From: a virus
Lineage: Duplodnaviria; Heunggongvirae; Uroviricota; Caudoviricetes
DNA length: 64,000 bases
Virus record (IMG/VR): IMGVR_UViG_2974574300_000001
Coordinates: 1-64,000 of that record
Reading direction: 5' to 3' (one strand)
Position numbers and translations under genes: made by a program. Shown piece after piece: positions 573 to 6,560 of the stretch. How positions within the stretch are numbered: the stretch's first letter is position 1; every line of letters starts with the position of its first letter. Below the pieces are notes generated by a model that ran no database searches, was not told the origin of the DNA, and saw nothing but the letters and a program-made list of their open reading frames with translations.

Positions 573-1988
573 ATGAGCGAATTATTTAAACATGCGCACC
601 TTCATGCAGGTCGAACTGAAAATGGTGCTGTAAACCATACTTCATCAATGTCTGCTCTTGTAGACTTTTACAAAGCTGCTGGTTCGAGTCGTAGCAATGT
701 AGAAATCTTACCAGACCTGTTCTACAAAGCTTTGCGTGAGGATGTTGATGTTGCAGTTCGTATTTTACTGCATATGCGAGATGTACGAGAAGGTATGGGT
801 GAGCGTAAAGCCTTCAGAACTGTTTTGCTTCAAGCAATTGAAGATAAAGTTTTAGAACCTACACAGGTTCTTCGCATTATGGATAAGATTGCAGAACTTG
901 GTCGTTTTGATGACTTCAAAATCTTCGTAGGTACTCGTTTCGAGACAGATGCCTTCAAACATTTAGAAGCAGCATTACTAGACCCTGCAACAGCAGGTTT
1001 GGCAGCTAAGTGGTTACCACGAGTCAAACCACGTCATAAGCAGTTTGTAAAACGTTTCTGTAAGTTTGCCAACTTGAGTGAGAAAGATTATCGCACACTG
1101 TTGTCTGCGCTCTCTGATACAGTTGAGCAAAAAATCTCTGCTAATGAGTTTGGTAAGATTGACTACAGTAAGATTCCTTCACTTGCTGCTGCACGTTACC
1201 AAAAACTGTTTAACCGCAAAGATGGAGAACGCTACAAAGCTTACATCGAGTCCTTATCAAAGGGTGAGACTAAGATTAATGCTGGTGCTGTTTACCCATA
1301 CGATGTGATTAAGTCTGTTAAGTATGGTAATGCAGATGTTGCTAATGAGCAGTGGAAAGCACTACCAAACTGGATGGCAGAGGGTGAAAACATCTTATGT
1401 ATGACTGATGTTTCAAGCTCAATGTCTTGGGTGAATTTTGGTTCAATCACTGCTCTTGATATTGGCGTATCACTTGCCTTGTATGTAGCAGAACGCAATA
1501 CAGGTTGCTTTAAGGATGAGTTGATGGTTTATTCAACAAACCCTCACTTCATTGAACTGAGTGGTGATTTACGAAACCGTCATCGTCAGGTGATGCGACA
1601 CGTTGAATATGGCTCAACTAACTTACAAGCAGCTTTTGAACGCATTCTTGAGATAGGTAAGAGAAACAACTTGACTCAGAAAGATATGCCAAGTAAGCTT
1701 ATCATCTTCTCCGATATGGAGTTCAATCAGGTTGATGGAGCTAACGGTCGTACAAACTTTGAAGCAATTCAGAGTAAGTACAAGAAAGCTGGATACGAAA
1801 TGCCACAACTGGTATTCTGGTACTTAGCAAACCGTAATGGTACTTGCGAAGTATCTGTTAAGGATAACGGTGTAGCAATGGTATCTGGTTTCTCTCCAGC
1901 CACTTTAAAAGCTCTGCTTGGTGGTGAGAAGTTTGACCCAATCAGCGTAATGCTCAAAGCAGTAATGATTGACCGTTATATCTGGTAA
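573..1988 (+). CDS. vWA-domain protein with MIDAS motif (Ro60/TROVE-like or DUF2828-like candidate)
   Basis: 471 aa ORF; helical N-terminal half then DVSSSM (DxSxS MIDAS) and downstream acidic IIFSDMEF strand typical of von Willebrand A fold. Confidence 0.6.
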   Translation: MSELFKHAHLHAGRTENGAVNHTSSMSALVDFYKAAGSSRSNVEILPDLFYKALREDVDVAVRILLHMRDVREGMGERKAFRTVLLQAIEDKVLEPTQVLRIMDKIAELGRFDDFKIFVGTRFETDAFKHLEAALLDPATAGLAAKWLPRVKPRHKQFVKRFCKFANLSEKDYRTLLSALSDTVEQKISANEFGKIDYSKIPSLAAARYQKLFNRKDGERYKAYIESLSKGETKINAGAVYPYDVIKSVKYGNADVANEQWKALPNWMAEGENILCMTDVSSSMSWVNFGSITALDIGVSLALYVAERNTGCFKDELMVYSTNPHFIELSGDLRNRHRQVMRHVEYGSTNLQAAFERILEIGKRNNLTQKDMPSKLIIFSDMEFNQVDGANGRTNFEAIQSKYKKAGYEMPQLVFWYLANRNGTCEVSVKDNGVAMVSGFSPATLKALLGGEKFDPISVMLKAVMIDRYIW

Positions 1989-2006
1989 AAAGTTTTAAAA
2001 AGGGTA

Positions 2007-2035
2007 TTGACAATGTGTTTGATACCCTTTAATAT
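2007..2035 (+). promoter_or_regulatory. sigma70-like promoter (TTGACA-17-TAATAT) overlapped by GGGTAT/ATACCC inverted repeat
   Basis: TTGACA at 2007-2012, 17 nt spacer, TAATAT at 2030-2035, immediately upstream of tRNA array. Confidence 0.6.
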
Positions 2036-2097
2036 GTTCTACATAGAAACGAAACGAGAGCTTTTCTAAGATACTGAAAAATATTTTAAAAAAGTTC

Positions 2098-2127
2098 TTG
2101 ACAATCACTAAAAAATAATGTTAAAGT
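2098..2127 (+). promoter_or_regulatory. possible sigma70-like promoter (TTGACA-17-TTAAAG)
   Basis: TTGACA at 2098-2103; weaker -10 element. Confidence 0.35.
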
Positions 2128-2153
2128 GGTTACATAGAGTTTGAAAAGTTTAT

Positions 2154-2230
2154 CTCTGTTTAGCTCAGCTTGGTAGAGCGTTCCGTTTGGGGCGGTAAGG
2201 CCGGAGGTTCAAGTCCTCCAACAGAGACCA
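2154..2230 (+). tRNA. tRNA-Pro (anticodon TGG)
   Basis: 7 bp acceptor CTCTGTT/AACAGAG, D-arm GCTC..GAGC, anticodon loop TTTGGGG, T-arm GGAGG-TTCAAGT-CCTCC, encoded CCA. Confidence 0.75.
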
Positions 2231-2237
2231 AATTAAT

Positions 2238-2315
2238 GTTCCAGTAGACAAAATGGTATAGTCACCACTCTTTCAAAGTGGATATTTGAGGGTTCAAATC
2301 CCTTCTGGAACGCCA
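2238..2315 (+). tRNA. tRNA-Glu (anticodon TTC)
   Basis: acceptor GTTCCAG/CTGGAAC, anticodon stem CCACT/AGTGG loop CTTTCAA, T-arm GAGGG-TTCAAAT-CCCTT, CCA. Confidence 0.7.
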
Positions 2316-2406
2316 GTTTTGACAGAAGACCAATTACAGCAAACTTAATCTTATTCATCTGAAGGTAAATCGGACAAAGAAGAGATTTGGTCTGGTCATT
2401 AAGAAT

Positions 2407-2483
2407 TGCGGGTATAGAGAAAGGGCGTCTCACATGTCTCATTAGCATGGTATCGGCAGGTTCGACTCCTGCACCCGCCTCCA
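2407..2483 (+). tRNA. tRNA-Met (anticodon CAT)
   Basis: anticodon stem CATGT/GCATG loop CTCATTA, T-arm GCAGG-TTCGACT-CCTGC, acceptor with 1:72 mismatch, CCA. Confidence 0.6.
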
Positions 2484-2566
2484 AATTTACAGAAGACCGT
2501 TTACAGCAATATTTATTAAATTTTTAGCGGAAAAATTGAAAGATACGGTCTGGTAATACTAAACAT

Positions 2567-2643
2567 GGTTAGGAAGCACATAAGGTATGTGCGGTCGCCT
2601 GTTAAGCGAATGGCACAGGGTTCGAATCCCTGACTAACCGCCA
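2567..2643 (+). tRNA. tRNA-Asn (anticodon GTT)
   Basis: acceptor GGTTAGG/ACTAACC, D-stem GCAC/GTGC, anticodon loop CTGTTAA, T-arm CAGGG-TTCGAAT-CCCTG, CCA. Confidence 0.7.
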
Positions 2644-2712
2644 AATTTAGGAGAGAAGCGATTGCTCACCGATTTGTAAGGTGCAAGTCCTTAGCCTGAA
2701 TAGAAATTAAAT

Positions 2713-2800
2713 GTGTCGTTATCCCGTAGATGGTAGCGGTGGGGACTGTAAATCCCTTGTCATTGAGACTCGGTAGGTTCGACTCCTACACGGCACACCA
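2713..2800 (+). tRNA. tRNA-Tyr (anticodon GTA), long variable arm
   Basis: acceptor GTGTCGT/ACGGCAC, anticodon stem GGGGA/TCCCT loop CTGTAAA, long variable arm, T-arm GTAGG-TTCGACT-CCTAC, CCA. Confidence 0.7.
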
Positions 2801-2805
2801 ATAAA

Positions 2806-2882
2806 GGTTATGTAGTTTAATTTGGTTAAAATACTCCCTGTCACGGGAGATGATGAGGGTTCAAATCCCTTCGTAACCGCCA
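2806..2882 (+). tRNA. tRNA-Asp (anticodon GTC)
   Basis: acceptor GGTTATG/CGTAACC, canonical Asp anticodon loop CTGTCAC (weak stem), T-arm GAGGG-TTCAAAT-CCCTT, CCA. Confidence 0.6.
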
Positions 2883-3310
2883 ATTTTGAGAGGGCTATTT
2901 AGCCCCTCCCTTAAAGAGTTCTTACGAGTATTCTTTAAAGGAGCAGAAGACCAAATTCAGCAAGTTACTTAAAATTTCAAGCCAATTTAATTTTGAAAAA
3001 TTTAAAACTTGGTCTGGCTCAACAAATTTACAGAAGACCATTTACAGCAAAACTTAAACAATCTATTTCTCGGTAAAGAAAAGGAGAAGGTTCGATTCCT
3101 TCACTCGGCAGGTGTCGAGTTGGTGTAATGGTAGCACTTAAGATGATAAACAACGGTCTGGTAATTATCTTTGTAGATAAGTTATTAAGCTTACCTGTGA
3201 GTATGCGACCACAAAGGGTGAAAGGGTAAATTCTAGATTTAAACCCAAAAAGGCACATCGCTACAGACCTTAAGCAAGTCTGGGTAGCTTATCTACAAAG
3301 ATAATTTAAT

Positions 3311-3386
3311 GGAAGTGTAGCAGAATGGTGATGCGGCAGACTTTTAATCTGACAGGCGATGGGTTCGAATCCCTCCACTTCTACCA
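3311..3386 (+). tRNA. tRNA-Lys (anticodon TTT)
   Basis: acceptor GGAAGTG/CACTTCT, anticodon loop CTTTTAA, T-loop TTCGAAT, CCA. Confidence 0.65.
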
Positions 3387-3390
3387 ATAT

Positions 3391-3467
3391 GGTTCAGTCG
3401 CAGATAAGGTAATGCAAGGGTCTCATAAGCCCTATGAATGTGGGTTCGATTCCCATCTGAACCTCCA
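3391..3467 (+). tRNA. tRNA-Met or tRNA-Ile2 (anticodon CAT)
   Basis: acceptor GGTTCAG/CTGAACC, anticodon stem AGGGT/GCCCT loop CTCATAA, T-arm GTGGG-TTCGATT-CCCAT, CCA. Confidence 0.7.
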
Positions 3468-3469
3468 AT

Positions 3470-3544
3470 TGTGGGTTAGCATAAATGGTAATGCAAACGG
3501 CTGATAACCGTTAGAAGAGGGTTCGATACCCTCACCTACAACCA
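3470..3544 (+). tRNA. tRNA-Ile (anticodon GAT)
   Basis: acceptor TGTGGGT/ACCTACA, anticodon stem AACGG/CCGTT loop CTGATAA, T-arm GAGGG-TTCGATA-CCCTC, CCA. Confidence 0.7.
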
Positions 3545-3559
3545 ATTTCAATAAAGTTG

Positions 3560-3588
3560 TTGACATTGAGATGTGACTACTTTATAGT
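3560..3588 (+). promoter_or_regulatory. sigma70-like promoter (TTGACA-17-TATAGT) inside tRNA array
   Basis: TTGACA 3560-3565, 17 nt spacer, TATAGT 3583-3588. Confidence 0.6.
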
Positions 3589-3880
3589 AACTAAAATACT
3601 TCAGAATATGTATAATTCAAACACCAATACATGAGCGTTAGACGTAACACAATGTGGGGAAATTTGTTGTACATATTCTGAATAGTTTTCGTTGCGTAGC
3701 GTCTATTTTGCAAATTTAAAATAAATGCAAACGACAATGTTTTTCTGGCAGTAGCTTGATAGGCTAAACACCAGTGAGGTCTTCCAATCCCTCATCAAAG
3801 AATTTGGCGTACTAGCCACGGTATGATTAATAAGGTGGGCATCTTTAAGGGCTTTCTAAGAGAGTCTTTAAAGATAATTA

Positions 3881-3962
3881 CGGGGCGTATCTCAGCGGTC
3901 TTCTAAACCGCCGTTAACCGAGTAAGTGGAGTATGCGGGTTCGAGTCCTGCCGCCTCGACCA
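3881..3962 (+). tRNA. non-canonical tRNA-like gene (anticodon-like hairpin with TCT, no clear D-arm)
   Basis: acceptor CGGGGCG/CGCCTCG, T-arm GCGGG-TTCGAGT-CCTGC, CCA; only a 5 bp/7 nt hairpin GCGGT-CTTCTAA-ACCGC placed where the D-arm should be, followed by 23 nt extra region. Confidence 0.45.
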
Positions 3963-4104
3963 ATTAGTTAGCAGATTACTTAGACGACCTAAGCGGGTCT
4001 TCCTGTAGGGAGGTGGTCTGTATCTCATGTTTTCCAGAACATGTAAATAATCTGAGAAGGGGCTTTACAGTGTTGAGATAATACGGTAAGCTTCGAATTA
4101 TAGT

Positions 4105-4187
4105 ATGGGACGATGTTAAGACTCTAAGGCATGAGCAACGGCTTCCAACACCGTTTCAAAGGGGTTCAACTCCTCCGTCCCATGCCA
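4105..4187 (+). tRNA. non-canonical tRNA-like gene (aberrant D region; anticodon uncertain, possibly CCA)
   Basis: perfect 7 bp acceptor ATGGGAC/GTCCCAT, T-loop TTCAACT, CCA; 26 nt between acceptor and candidate anticodon hairpin ACGGC-TTCCAAC-ACCGT. Confidence 0.45.
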
Positions 4188-4200
4188 AAGTCTTATTAGG

Positions 4201-4288
4201 GGTAGGTAGCGGCTAATGGTAGCCAAACTGTCTTGAAAACAGTTGCCACTGTAGAGATACGGTGAGGGTTCGACTCCTTTACTTACCG
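4201..4288 (+). tRNA. tRNA-Ser (anticodon TGA), type II
   Basis: acceptor GGTAGGT/ACTTACC, 3 bp D-stem, anticodon stem ACTGT/ACAGT loop CTTGAAA, long variable arm, T-loop TTCGACT; CCA not fully encoded. Confidence 0.7.
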
Positions 4289-4545
4289 CCTAATAAGATT
4301 TAAAGCCAAGCTTCATTCGGATGTTGCTTTGGTATCCCTCGTGTATTGTCGTACACACTGATAAAACACCTAGTAGGTGTCACGGAGAAGAGATAATATC
4401 AAGCTCTCCAAAGGTTCTAGTCACCGGATTAAACAAGACTATGCAAAGACCTTTTTAGGTCTTTTTAGAGGGCTTCTAAGGTTATTACAGCTTGTTGTGG
4501 AACCTTGTTGCTTAGGTTCTTAGAAGTTCTCTAAAAAGATTTAAT

Positions 4546-4623
4546 GGGAGATTGACGGTAATTGGTAAACCTACCTCGCTTAGAACGAGGTGTTTGAGGG
4601 TTCGAATCCCTTGTCTCCTACCA
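4546..4623 (+). tRNA. tRNA with anticodon TAG (Leu by anticodon) but short variable arm
   Basis: acceptor GGGAGAT/GTCTCCT, anticodon stem CCTCG/CGAGG loop CTTAGAA, 5 nt variable loop, T-arm GAGGG-TTCGAAT-CCCTT, CCA. Confidence 0.6.
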
Positions 4624-4630
4624 AATTAAT

Positions 4631-4706
4631 GCAGGTGTAGCAAAATGGTTATGCGGCTGACTCTTAATCAGTAAGACGATGGGTTCAATTCCCTCCACCT
4701 GTACCA
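4631..4706 (+). tRNA. tRNA-Lys (anticodon CTT)
   Basis: acceptor GCAGGTG/CACCTGT, anticodon loop CTCTTAA, T-loop TTCAATT, CCA; paralog of 3311-3386. Confidence 0.6.
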
Positions 4707-4712
4707 AACATT

Positions 4713-4788
4713 GGGGATGTAGTTTACATGGTTAAAACATAAGTTTTGCAAACTTGGGAACTGAGTTCAATTCTCAGTGACTCCACCA
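4713..4788 (+). tRNA. tRNA-Ala (anticodon TGC)
   Basis: G3:U70 in acceptor, anticodon stem TAAGT/ACTTG loop TTTGCAA, T-arm CTGAG-TTCAATT-CTCAG, CCA. Confidence 0.6.
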
Positions 4789-4794
4789 ATTAGT

Positions 4795-4869
4795 GCATCC
4801 ATAGTTTAAACGGGAAAATTACAGTCTTCCAAACTGAGGTTGAGGGTTCGATTCCCTCTGGATGCTCCA
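4795..4869 (+). tRNA. tRNA-Trp (anticodon CCA)
   Basis: acceptor GCATCCA/TGGATGC, anticodon loop CTTCCAA, T-arm GAGGG-TTCGATT-CCCTC, CCA. Confidence 0.7.
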
Positions 4870-4875
4870 AACAAT

Positions 4876-4952
4876 GCTGCTTTCGTATAATTGGCTATTA
4901 CACATCCCTTGTAAGGATGGAAATGCAGGTTCGAGTCCTGTGAGCAGCACCA
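4876..4952 (+). tRNA. tRNA-Thr (anticodon TGT)
   Basis: acceptor GCTGCTT/GAGCAGC, anticodon stem CATCC/GGATG loop CTTGTAA, T-arm GCAGG-TTCGAGT-CCTGT, CCA. Confidence 0.7.
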
Positions 4953-5047
4953 ATTCAGAGGTCAAGTGAAAGACCGCTGGTGTCAACTGAAGACCGTAAC
5001 AAATTCCACGGAGTTGAGTTAGCGGCACAACTTCAGACCTCTTTCAC

Positions 5048-5122
5048 ACTCGCTTAGTTTATATGGTAAAACATCACCCTTACAAGATGAAGAAAAAGGT
5101 TCAAGTCCTTTAGTGAGTACCA
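5048..5122 (+). tRNA. tRNA-Val (anticodon TAC)
   Basis: acceptor ACTCGCT/AGTGAGT, D-stem GTTT/AAAC, anticodon loop CTTACAA, T-arm AAAGG-TTCAAGT-CCTTT, CCA. Confidence 0.65.
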
Positions 5123-5123
5123 T

Positions 5124-5202
5124 GTTCCAGTATCCCAATTGGCAGAGAGGCCAGACTTAAAATCTGTGTTATGTATCGGTTCGAATCCGATATGGAGTAC
5201 CA
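5124..5202 (+). tRNA. tRNA with anticodon TAA (Leu by anticodon), short variable arm
   Basis: acceptor GTTCCAG/ATGGAGT (6 of 7 pairs), anticodon stem CCAGA/TCTGT loop CTTAAAA, T-arm ATCGG-TTCGAAT-CCGAT, CCA. Confidence 0.5.
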
Positions 5203-5207
5203 ATTTT

Positions 5208-5283
5208 AGCGGTATAGCATAACTGGCAATGCAGCAGTCTCTGAAGCTGTCCTATTAAGGTTCAAATCCTTATGCCGCTGCCA
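5208..5283 (+). tRNA. tRNA-Gln (anticodon CTG)
   Basis: acceptor AGCGGTA/TGCCGCT, anticodon loop CTCTGAA, T-arm TAAGG-TTCAAAT-CCTTA, CCA. Confidence 0.6.
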
Positions 5284-5314
5284 CTTCTAAGGGTTCTTAC
5301 GAGAGTCCTTAAAT

Positions 5315-5390
5315 GTGGCCTTATCATAAACGGTAATGACCCATGCTGTGAACATGGTCTATACGGGTTCAAATCCCGTAGGTCACCCCA
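5315..5390 (+). tRNA. tRNA-His (anticodon GTG)
   Basis: acceptor GTGGCCT/AGGTCAC, discriminator C, anticodon stem CCATG/CATGG loop CTGTGAA, T-arm ACGGG-TTCAAAT-CCCGT, CCA. Confidence 0.7.
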
Positions 5391-5396
5391 ATTTAT

Positions 5397-5472
5397 AGTC
5401 CAAGTAGCTTATATGGTTAAAGCGCGTGTCTGAAAAACATGAGAAGAGGGTTCAAATCCCACTGGACTACCA
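5397..5472 (+). tRNA. tRNA-Phe (anticodon GAA)
   Basis: D-stem GCTT/AAGC, anticodon stem CGTGT/ACATG loop CTGAAAA, T-loop TTCAAAT, CCA. Confidence 0.65.
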
Positions 5473-5489
5473 ATTTTCAAAGGTGCTTA

Positions 5490-6224
5490 ATGAAAGAGAT
5501 GACAGGACAAGGTAAGGAGATTTTTAATCTCTTAAAAACCGGTAAAGGGTTTTCTAACCCACTTATTACTGGTGCAGTAGTTCTCGGTGGAACCGTAGCT
5601 GCCTCTACATCACTTGTAAGCTCTATTAGCTCTGTAACAGACCCTACAATGAAGGAGAAGCTTGTTGCTGCTGGACTCACAACAGTCCTTCTAAACAGCT
5701 TTACAACAAGCCTGACAAGCACTACAGCAACTACTAAGACCCTAACAGACTATGGTCAAAAGTCTATTGATGAGTTTTCATCACGTATGCAGGTAGCAAA
5801 GGGGTATTCCAATGTTATGGGTGCAGCAGGAGAACAAGTTGGTTGTACACCATTTAGTGGTATTATGGGTGTTGCTACAGAGTATGGTCAGCAAGCTATT
5901 GACACGATTAACAGCACACTAGACAGTGTTAACGGTGTGTTAAGTGACTTACAAGACGCTATTGATAAGGGTCTTGATACTGTTTCTGATTTAGCTAACC
6001 AAGCTGTTAGCAAGATTAATGAAGGTATCTCAAAGATTACAGCTTATGCAGATGAAGTTGTGCAGATGATTGAAGAAGAAGCTGCCCTTATTGCAGAGTA
6101 CCTTAAAACGAATATCAATGGGTTCTTAGCAGGTATCTTACCAGACTGGTTTGATGATGCTTGGAAAACTGGTGTAATCGACACTATTGCAACACCAGAA
6201 ATGAAGAACGCATTACAGAAATAA
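5490..6224 (+). CDS. hypothetical protein (Ser/Thr-rich N-terminal half)
   Basis: ORF track 5439-6224 trimmed to first ATG after tRNA-Phe; AGGTG RBS. Confidence 0.5.
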   Translation: MKEMTGQGKEIFNLLKTGKGFSNPLITGAVVLGGTVAASTSLVSSISSVTDPTMKEKLVAAGLTTVLLNSFTTSLTSTTATTKTLTDYGQKSIDEFSSRMQVAKGYSNVMGAAGEQVGCTPFSGIMGVATEYGQQAIDTINSTLDSVNGVLSDLQDAIDKGLDTVSDLANQAVSKINEGISKITAYADEVVQMIEEEAALIAEYLKTNINGFLAGILPDWFDDAWKTGVIDTIATPEMKNALQK

Positions 6225-6225
6225 T

Positions 6226-6318
6226 GGAAGATTAACCCTAAAAGGTAAGGGAGCAGTTTGCTAAACTGCCAGTAGCTGAGAAATCGGTGTACCAGTTCAA
6301 GTCTGGTATCTTCCTCCA
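6226..6318 (+). tRNA. tRNA-Ser (anticodon GCT), type II
   Basis: perfect acceptor GGAAGAT/ATCTTCC, 3 bp D-stem CCC/GGG, anticodon stem GCAGT/ACTGC loop TTGCTAA, long variable arm, T-arm ACCAG-TTCAAGT-CTGGT, CCA. Confidence 0.75.
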
Positions 6319-6322
6319 ATCT

Positions 6323-6398
6323 GAATCCGTGACAGAAATGGATATGTGCCTGTCTGCAAAACAGGTTTATAAGGGTTCAAGTCCCTTCGGATTCTCCA
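6323..6398 (+). tRNA. tRNA-Cys (anticodon GCA)
   Basis: acceptor GAATCCG/CGGATTC, anticodon stem CCTGT/ACAGG loop CTGCAAA, T-arm AAGGG-TTCAAGT-CCCTT, CCA. Confidence 0.75.
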
Positions 6399-6435
6399 AG
6401 TTATTTTACTCTCTCTCAATTAAAATAATAATAAT

Positions 6436-6495
6436 GCCCTGCTATAAGTATTCTTCCTTTCGCTACCGAAGAGTATTTTTAGACAGGGCTTTTTT
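6436..6495 (+). terminator. long hairpin followed by T6 (possible terminator after tRNA array)
   Basis: GCCCTG ... CAGGGC closing stem with nested AGTATTCTTC/GAAGAGTATT stem, then TTTTTT. Confidence 0.4.
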
Positions 6496-6560
6496 ACAGA
6501 GTTATACTTTATAGGAAGACTTATACAGTATGTCTCTGACGTACATTGTGGTTTCTCCTT

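Follow-up and report, generated by a model that had tools for sequence, protein, structure and literature searches.

Why are two neighbouring tRNA genes in the array of a tailed phage held 95 nt apart, when most tRNA pairs of that array stand only 1-7 nt apart and have nothing comparable between them? The question arises in the stretch of DNA analysed here (the window: positions 1 to 64,000, the full 64,000 nt, of IMG/VR record IMGVR_UViG_2974574300_000001), where tRNA-Thr(tgt) and tRNA-Val(tac) enclose what a preliminary description of the letters had called a structured non-coding element, a candidate small RNA or processing structure. We compared this gap with its counterparts in related phages, examined its fold and its possible identities, and considered its relationship to a protein gene encoded upstream of the array.

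The Thr-Val gap of the tRNA array

Over the 1 kb surrounding the gap, the sequence matches Salmonella phage FM4b (Felixounavirus, PP068124) with 100% identity, and Felix O1 together with many relatives with 96-97%; the Thr-Val gap of Felix O1 likewise measures 95 nt. The gap lies in a long tRNA array, with a 471-aa ORF before the array and the terminase gene after it. ARAGORN called 22 tRNAs, none of them within the gap (Table 1). In alignments, the two flanks of the gap (4953-4956 and 5043-5047) vary among relatives, and the conserved RNA unit between them is hereafter called the element. The window holds a single copy, which our covariance model R1 (described below) matched at 4955-5044 with 119.9 bits. 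No promoter-like and no terminator-like site was found on the + strand of ~4100-5300. None of the phage records inspected annotates the element, and a few overlay it with spurious ORF calls.

Table 1. Window coordinates of the element, its helices and the neighbouring genes discussed in the text
Feature	Position	Strand	Remarks
Predicted Ro60-fold protein gene, 471 aa, DUF2828 + DUF7788	573-1988	+	Pfam; AlphaFold2 pLDDT 85.9
Likely tmRNA-like gene, promoter-like site	3560-3588		
Likely tmRNA-like gene, tag frame	3727-3762		
Likely tmRNA-like gene, tRNA-like unit	3881-3962		
tRNA-Thr(tgt)	4876-4952	+	encoded CCA; ARAGORN; Rfam tRNA 54.7 bits
Inter-tRNA gap, 95 nt	4953-5047	+	holds conserved RNA unit 4957-5042 (86 nt)
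P1 5' strand AGAGGUC, closing stem	4957-4963	+	pairs with 5036-5042
Joining segment AAGUGAAAGA	4964-4973	+	UGAA kept in Avunavirus (AAUGAAAU); alignment
P2 5' strand CCGCU	4974-4978	+	pairs with 5021-5025
Almost invariant 27-nt segment GUCAACUGAAGACCGUAACAAAUUCCA	4982-5008	+	proposed recognition surface
P5 5' strand GGAGUUG	5010-5016	+	pairs with 5028-5034
P2 3' strand AGCGG	5021-5025	+	inside loop of hairpin P5
P5 3' strand CAACUUC	5028-5034	+	one base (A5035) before P1 3' strand
P1 3' strand GACCUCU	5036-5042	+	pairs with 4957-4963
tRNA-Val(tac)	5048-5122	+	ARAGORN; Rfam tRNA 60 bits

Several other features of the array were recorded. Relative to Felix O1, FM4b is without a block comprising tRNA-Arg, ORF48, tRNA-Gln and a tRNA-Leu copy (window ~5203-5208 against L001:2626-3561), and at ~5203-5208 most other relatives have an insertion of ~740 bp relative to FM4b. 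ORF48, lost from FM4b, encodes a DUF7338 protein with a hydrophobic N-terminus. An HNH endonuclease gene stands between tRNA-Gly and tRNA-Thr of Felix O1 and is not present in FM4b. The tRNA that ARAGORN called at 2806-2882 ('tRNA-???') has an anticodon loop of 8 nt with four bases, gtca, as its anticodon; the GenBank record gives it as tRNA-Asp. Just upstream of tRNA-Leu, the 4291-4545 spacer contains a strong hairpin (window 4451-4550) that produced a spurious match to a plant microRNA precursor (MIR473, 32.7 bits, E 3e-4) and that may be another structured spacer RNA.

The element is neither a tRNA nor a member of a described RNA family

The element shares with tRNA genes its location, its strand, and a 7-bp terminal stem with a second helix nearby, loosely like an acceptor/T-arm stack. 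However, it has no cloverleaf and no T-loop, and its closing stem P1 is followed by UUUCAC, whereas the surrounding tRNAs encode CCA. Neither ARAGORN nor the Rfam tRNA model recognised it, and an Rfam search of 301 nt on the + strand at E <= 10 matched no family, tRNA included, to the element. This bears out the earlier statement that it is not a tRNA.

We also considered and rejected several other identities. Two ORFs overlap the element, one of 18 codons with a GTG start on the + strand and one of 69 aa on the - strand (4819-5028); neither is taken to be coding, because a 1-nt indel at 4978/4979 among close relatives frameshifts both. An intrinsic terminator was rejected, as 4900-5100 contains no terminator-like site and P1 is followed by only three U. 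Mimicry of the 3' end of 16S rRNA was rejected as well, the shared CGUAACAA not being significant (89 of 1000 shuffles scored as high). A search for antisense targets within the window returned only 11-mers at chance level.

The species 1 and 2 stable RNAs of phage T4 (rnaC and rnaD) are likewise non-tRNA small RNA genes that lie within a phage tRNA cluster and on the tRNA strand, and the element, too, lies within its cluster without a promoter or terminator of its own. The T4 RNAs differ in length (139 and 119 nt, against ~90 nt for the element), have no sequence or structure similarity to it, and in the case of rnaC carry a T-arm-like GGGUUCGAAUCCCGG that the element lacks. When R1 was run on the T4 cluster with filters off, the best match scored 10.1 bits (E 0.41) and lay outside both rnaC and rnaD. 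The T4 species 1 and 2 RNAs have, to our knowledge, no known function and have stood unexplained for decades. The element can be placed with the non-tRNA RNAs of phage tRNA clusters, which form a loose class, but it is homologous to none of those described.

Conservation in Ounavirinae and Avunavirus

Sensitive BLAST with 4940-5060 matched 258 phage records, 252 of which belonged to Ounavirinae and had the element in the corresponding Thr-Val gap. In Avunavirus (Vequintavirinae; phages Av-05, TH18 and 24-2-1) the element alone matched, with ~82% identity; in the two phages inspected, Av-05 and TH18, it is located after tRNA-Gly(tcc) and before two protein genes. Four divergent relatives share 87-97% identity with the window in the element and 62-100% in the tRNAs. 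Both flanking tRNAs fall below the element in three of the four relatives each, tRNA-Val with 83-85% and tRNA-Thr with 77-79%. For the 4291-4545 spacer the values are 80-86% in three relatives and 97% in the remaining one, L150, in which the element has 95%. Going by these alignments, the element is conserved as well as the neighbouring tRNAs, and its conservation starts and stops at the boundaries of P1.

The Avunavirus copy has companions from a transferred block. In Av-05, tRNA-Gly is 88% identical, and a DUF7338 protein encoded just downstream shares 79% identity with ORF48 of Felix O1; the presence of the element in Av-05 partly reflects transfer of the whole array block. Elsewhere in the Av-05 array, between tRNA-Tyr and tRNA-Gly, we observed a long hairpin CUGUACUGGC...GCCAGUACAG (L003:2271-2419), which is followed by an odd tRNA-like sequence that ends in CCCACCA and was not called by ARAGORN.

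R1 found no match in T4, KP13-16, P778-like phages, LAh_6, ValKK3 or Los1. In P778-like phages the Thr-Val gap is filled by unrelated material, and the contents of this gap in distant relatives are a 35-nt hairpin, a 42-aa ORF or a 212-nt structured RNA. The last of these (L174:12772-12983, -67 kcal/mol, in a phage whose Ro-like protein is 55% identical) has paired ends GGGAC...GUCCC followed by ACCA, and is perhaps a tRNA-like RNA carrying a large insert, or else a tRNA with an intron. No homologue of the element was found in 5,426 E. coli genomes, and the sole match in one genome each of 185,579 species was a chance 20-mer. A degenerate pattern of the core run against IMG/VR gave, beyond the known copies, chance matches only.

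Natural variants support three helices around an almost invariant segment

The gap has a minimum free energy of -30.7 kcal/mol (z = -2.96), and one of 200 dinucleotide shuffles folded as well. R1 was built from 12 Ounavirinae sequences with minimum-energy helices, and was used to align 25 copies of the element, 24 of them distinct, including new variants from a metagenome scan. Covariance-model alignments were used because MAFFT misplaced the 5' strand of Av-05.

The closing stem of the preliminary description was retained in a shorter form. Its exact complement AGAGGTC/GACCTCT forms P1 and covaries, with G-C replaced by U-A in the Avunavirus sequences and by G.U in L155; however, the stem comprises 7 bp rather than nine, since the TC at the start of the quoted strand does not pair. 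Across the P1 junction, the Suspvirus sequence is GGUCGAGUG. The internal pairing that had been proposed between CAACTGAAGACC (4984-4995) and ACTTCAGACC (5030-5039) had to be given up as part of the conserved fold. It amounts to six complementary bases (CUGAAG/CUUCAG), which are broken in 9 of 144 sequence-by-pair cells across the 24 distinct homologues, six times at one pair and three times at another, and no compensatory change was seen in these homologues. The breaks occur in Avunavirus and in CUCCAG variants, and the pairing also overlaps a better-supported helix.

Hairpin P5 is paired in all 24 distinct sequences, and four of its seven pairs vary (GC/GU, GU/GC/AU, AU/GC/GU and UA/UG). In P2, one G-C pair becomes G.U in L170 and A-U in L150. 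When P1, P2 and P5 were scored jointly, the observed covariation was reached by none of 500 shuffles. P2 and P5 cross to form a predicted pseudoknot, because the AGCGG strand of P2 sits in the P5 loop; since only 2 nt lie between their 3' strands, they may be alternative folds rather than simultaneous ones. The 27-nt segment has one variable position in the set (5005), and its sequence is the same in Felix O1-type phages and Av-05.

A different structure, a rod with inner helices UCAAC/GUUGA, CCGU/ACGG and AAGU/ACUU, is the minimum-energy prediction, and for Felix-type sequences it is predicted to be ~7 kcal/mol more stable than a nested fold in which P5 is enforced. We nevertheless rejected the rod, which is broken by natural changes at 5011, 5017 and 5033 that keep P5. 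Among the 24 distinct sequences the inner rod helices showed no covariation and were broken by several variants, and all of the rod-breaking substitutions are neutral or pair-preserving under P5. In the minimum-energy folds of Av-05 and L154 the inner rod helices are absent and the hairpin GGGGUUG/CAAC(C/U)CC, which is P5, is present. The alignment was not biased towards P5, as the structure used in fitting it was the rival rod. At one P5 position G.U is the most frequent pair; this indicates that the + strand is the functional one, because on the other strand the same pair would be a C.A mismatch.

The covariation evidence for this fold is moderate rather than overwhelming in the sequences at hand, with roughly one independent double change for each helix and no variation at most pairs. 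At that strength, natural variants support P1, P5 and P2 as the frame of the almost invariant 27-nt segment. Conserved structure in homologous arrays, which had been named as the check on the element, is present in ~250 Ounavirinae as well as in Avunavirus, and three helices show compensatory changes. The original proposal of a structured non-coding element between these two tRNAs on the + strand was upheld in this respect.

A Ro60-fold protein upstream of the array and the Y RNA question

The top eight PDB matches of the AlphaFold2 model of ORF 573-1988 were all Ro60, over the full length and with E from 4e-8 to 1e-5 (Ro60 entries matched: 9KOP, 2I91, 9NFA, 1YVR, 9NEP, 2NVO and 1YVP). The sequence profile of the ORF only grazes Ro60, with E ~0.7. 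The protein would accordingly represent a DUF2828 branch that matches Ro60 by its modelled fold only, and mycobacteriophage records use the name 'Ro-like RNA binding protein' for a DUF2828 protein of this kind. In Felixounavirus Bas63, gp130, which is encoded directly upstream of the tRNA array, has been reported to be Ro60-like and to counter the ppl defence (preprint, PMC11482910). We take gp130 to be the counterpart of ORF 573-1988 because of its position. The same preprint speculates that some of the downstream 'tRNAs' are Y RNAs, and names none.

We therefore compared the element with known Y RNAs, namely the long-hairpin S. Typhimurium YrlB and D. radiodurans Yrn2 and the Yrl1/Yrl2 RNAs of Thermus phage phiLo (PMC4201824, PMC12135203); a long-hairpin Y RNA was found in each of three bacteria studied (PMC4201824). 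At ~90 nt the element falls within the Y RNA range of 80-130 nt, and its paired ends flank unpaired conserved sequence, the covarying 7-bp P1 being followed by 10 unpaired nt on the 5' side. Its start lies 2.97 kb downstream of ORF 573-1988 on the same strand, within the ~4 kb typical of Y RNAs, and the co-transcription with tRNAs that we propose for it would resemble that of D. radiodurans Yrn2, which is co-transcribed with a tRNA (PMC4201824). On the other hand, P1 is short compared with the stems of known Y RNAs, and the element has no tRNA-clan or other Rfam match that would indicate a tRNA-like module with T and D arms of the YrlA kind. It also lacks the Ro60-binding motif, which is located on the 5' strand and reads GGUCCGA in animals and GNCGAAN0-1G or CGAA in bacteria and phage phiLo. 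At the corresponding position the element has GGUCAAGUGAAAG, Suspvirus GGUCGAGUG and Av-05 AUGUCAAUGAAAU, and GNCGAAN0-1G does not occur on the + strand of 1989-6500, which covers the whole array.

The distribution of the RNA was then set against that of the protein. Av-05 has the RNA and no DUF2828 homologue across its whole 121-kb genome; Av05_004 (451 aa), encoded beside the Av-05 array, was considered as a hidden Ro-like protein and rejected (hhalign probability 0.4%, no Pfam match). Conversely, the L171 lineage (Ro-like protein 63% identical) has the protein and a tRNA array without the Thr-element-Val block, and P778-like phages (53-56%) have the protein and a tRNA array without the RNA. 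In all, the loci with the protein and no R1 match are L171-L174, KP13-16, LAh_6, ValKK3 and Los1. In the genomes compared, the distribution of the RNA and the Ro60-fold protein dissociates both ways, and the two do not co-occur consistently as Y RNAs and Ro60 proteins would.

In Felix O1-like phages the Ro60-fold protein encoded 3 kb upstream is the partner that first comes to mind, but since each of the two is found in related phages that lack the other, we consider it unlikely that this protein is the partner of the RNA in a Y-RNA-like role. A host factor that the enterobacteria infected by both phage groups have in common is no less likely a partner. A more elaborate version, that the element is a new type of Ro60-partner RNA, is decidedly improbable: such a Y RNA analogue without CGAA or a tRNA-like module would be excised and pseudoknotted, would load the DUF2828-type protein, and would be needed for the reported ppl counter-defence of that protein.

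The DUF2828 family itself has a recurrent genomic setting. Genes of Ro60-fold DUF2828 proteins adjoin same-strand tRNA genes in several unrelated phage groups, including Ounavirinae (loci considered besides window 573-1988: L038, L176 and L178). The tRNA array of Klebsiella phage KP13-16 starts 676 nt downstream of the DUF2828 gene, four tRNAs of Campylobacter phage Los1 end 660 nt upstream of it, and a tRNA-Cys of Aeromonas phage LAh_6 lies ~900 nt upstream of it; Vibrio phage ValKK3 has a DUF2828 gene without the adjoining same-strand tRNA pattern. This adjacency suggests that the DUF2828 Ro60-fold family is functionally tied to phage tRNA transcripts.

A likely tmRNA-like gene upstream in the array

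A separate candidate RNA gene, likewise not called by ARAGORN, was noticed at 3683-3962. Its tag frame, GCA AAC GAC AAT GTT TTT CTG GCA GTA GCT TGA TAG, would encode ANDNVFLAVA followed by two stop codons, a peptide that we take to resemble the E. coli SsrA tag ANDENYALAA. The same tag peptide occurs in 39 loci; L154 and L171 carry synonymous changes (GAC to GAT, TGA to TAA), and SUSP1 replaces V by A. The tRNA-like unit lies ~120 nt downstream of the tag and has the acceptor CGGGGCG/CGCCUCG, followed by A and CCA, with a G3.U70 wobble typical of alanine acceptors.

Rfam models run on 3683-3962 gave 31.7 bits for tRNA, 22.1 bits for the tmRNA ends (E 4e-6), 15.1 bits for the tmRNA body and 24.9 bits for permuted tmRNA, all three tmRNA scores being below the family thresholds. 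Identity to relatives is 94-96% over 3683-3841 and 70-85% in the flanks. The layout, a tag followed by a complete tRNA-like unit, corresponds to neither the standard nor the known permuted tmRNA order. A genome announcement that includes Felixounavirus phages reported no tmRNAs in any of its genomes. We regard 3683-3962 as likely to be a tmRNA-like gene.

Discussion

As far as comparison of sequences can tell, the phage tRNA operon includes the element as a genuine RNA gene, conserved and structured. The reading that we favour, with a probability of roughly 0.55, is that it is released by tRNA-processing enzymes and then acts in trans through the 27-nt segment held in the P1/P5/P2 scaffold. 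A small structured RNA of ~86-90 nt would be transcribed within the polycistronic tRNA precursor; its 5' side would be freed by 3' processing of tRNA-Thr, and its 3' side by RNase P cleavage at the 5' end of tRNA-Val. The ends of the resulting stable RNA would be locked by the 7-bp P1, which P5 adjoins at a distance of one base on the 3' strand, and pairing of the P5 loop with the upstream strand to form P2 would produce the pseudoknot. The scaffold would present the 27-nt segment as a surface recognised by a partner, and the RNA could act as a binding, tethering or decoy RNA.

The best surviving alternative, which we nonetheless think improbable, is that the element works only in cis as a spacer of the precursor, preventing the tRNAs from misfolding across each other or offering RNase E or RNase III a place of entry or cleavage, and is degraded afterwards with no function of its own. 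Its exact placement between two tRNAs without its own promoter or terminator would fit such a spacer, as would its closed stem-loop architecture and the replacement of the element in distant relatives by an unrelated hairpin, ORF or larger RNA. However, a spacer needs structure and not sequence, and yet the 27 nt outside the helices are near-invariant across two phage subfamilies. For the same reason, the 'processing structure' reading offered in the preliminary description is a poor fit with an invariant segment that the supported helices leave unpaired. A spacer would also have to be reconciled with the many tRNA pairs of the array that stand 1-7 nt apart and have no such element, and with Av-05, in which the element is followed by protein genes and not by a tRNA.

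It is very unlikely that the element is functionless today and in decay, whether as a fragment of a former tRNA or other gene or as a passenger of moving tRNA-array blocks. The arrays of this family are certainly mosaic, their tRNA genes being interspersed with HNH endonuclease genes and indels; Av-05 acquired its copy together with a transferred block, and the element is missing in more distant relatives. Decay, however, is at odds with a degree of conservation like that of the tRNAs and better than that of the non-tRNA spacer in three of four relatives, and with changes within P1, P2 and P5 that preserve pairing. In addition, the tRNA models give no match to it at E <= 10, and its conservation falls off sharply at the boundaries of P1.

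Phage DNA was where several classes of small ribozyme first came to light, and the combination of a pseudoknot with highly conserved unpaired nucleotides could suggest an undescribed self-cleaving ribozyme or ligand-binding aptamer, in which the invariant segment and pseudoknot would be the active core that cuts the precursor or senses a metabolite; but with no Rfam ribozyme or riboswitch match at E <= 10, no expression platform, and a downstream context that changes from a tRNA in the Felix-type phages to an ORF in Av-05, we give this idea hardly any credence.

Release from the tRNA precursor followed by action in trans thus remains our preferred account, and the finding bears on a well-known group of phages. 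Felix O1-like phages, classical typing phages, are also among the phages that have been isolated and investigated for possible use in biocontrol, and they carry here a conserved RNA gene that no database describes. It adds a defined non-tRNA RNA to a phage tRNA operon, in a class with T4 species 1 and 2. It is also the first concrete candidate for the Y RNA guessed to accompany the Ro60-like counter-defence protein (PMC11482910), although the same distribution data argue against a simple pairing of this RNA with the Ro60-like protein. The helices and the invariant segment are now defined, and are open to direct mutational tests.
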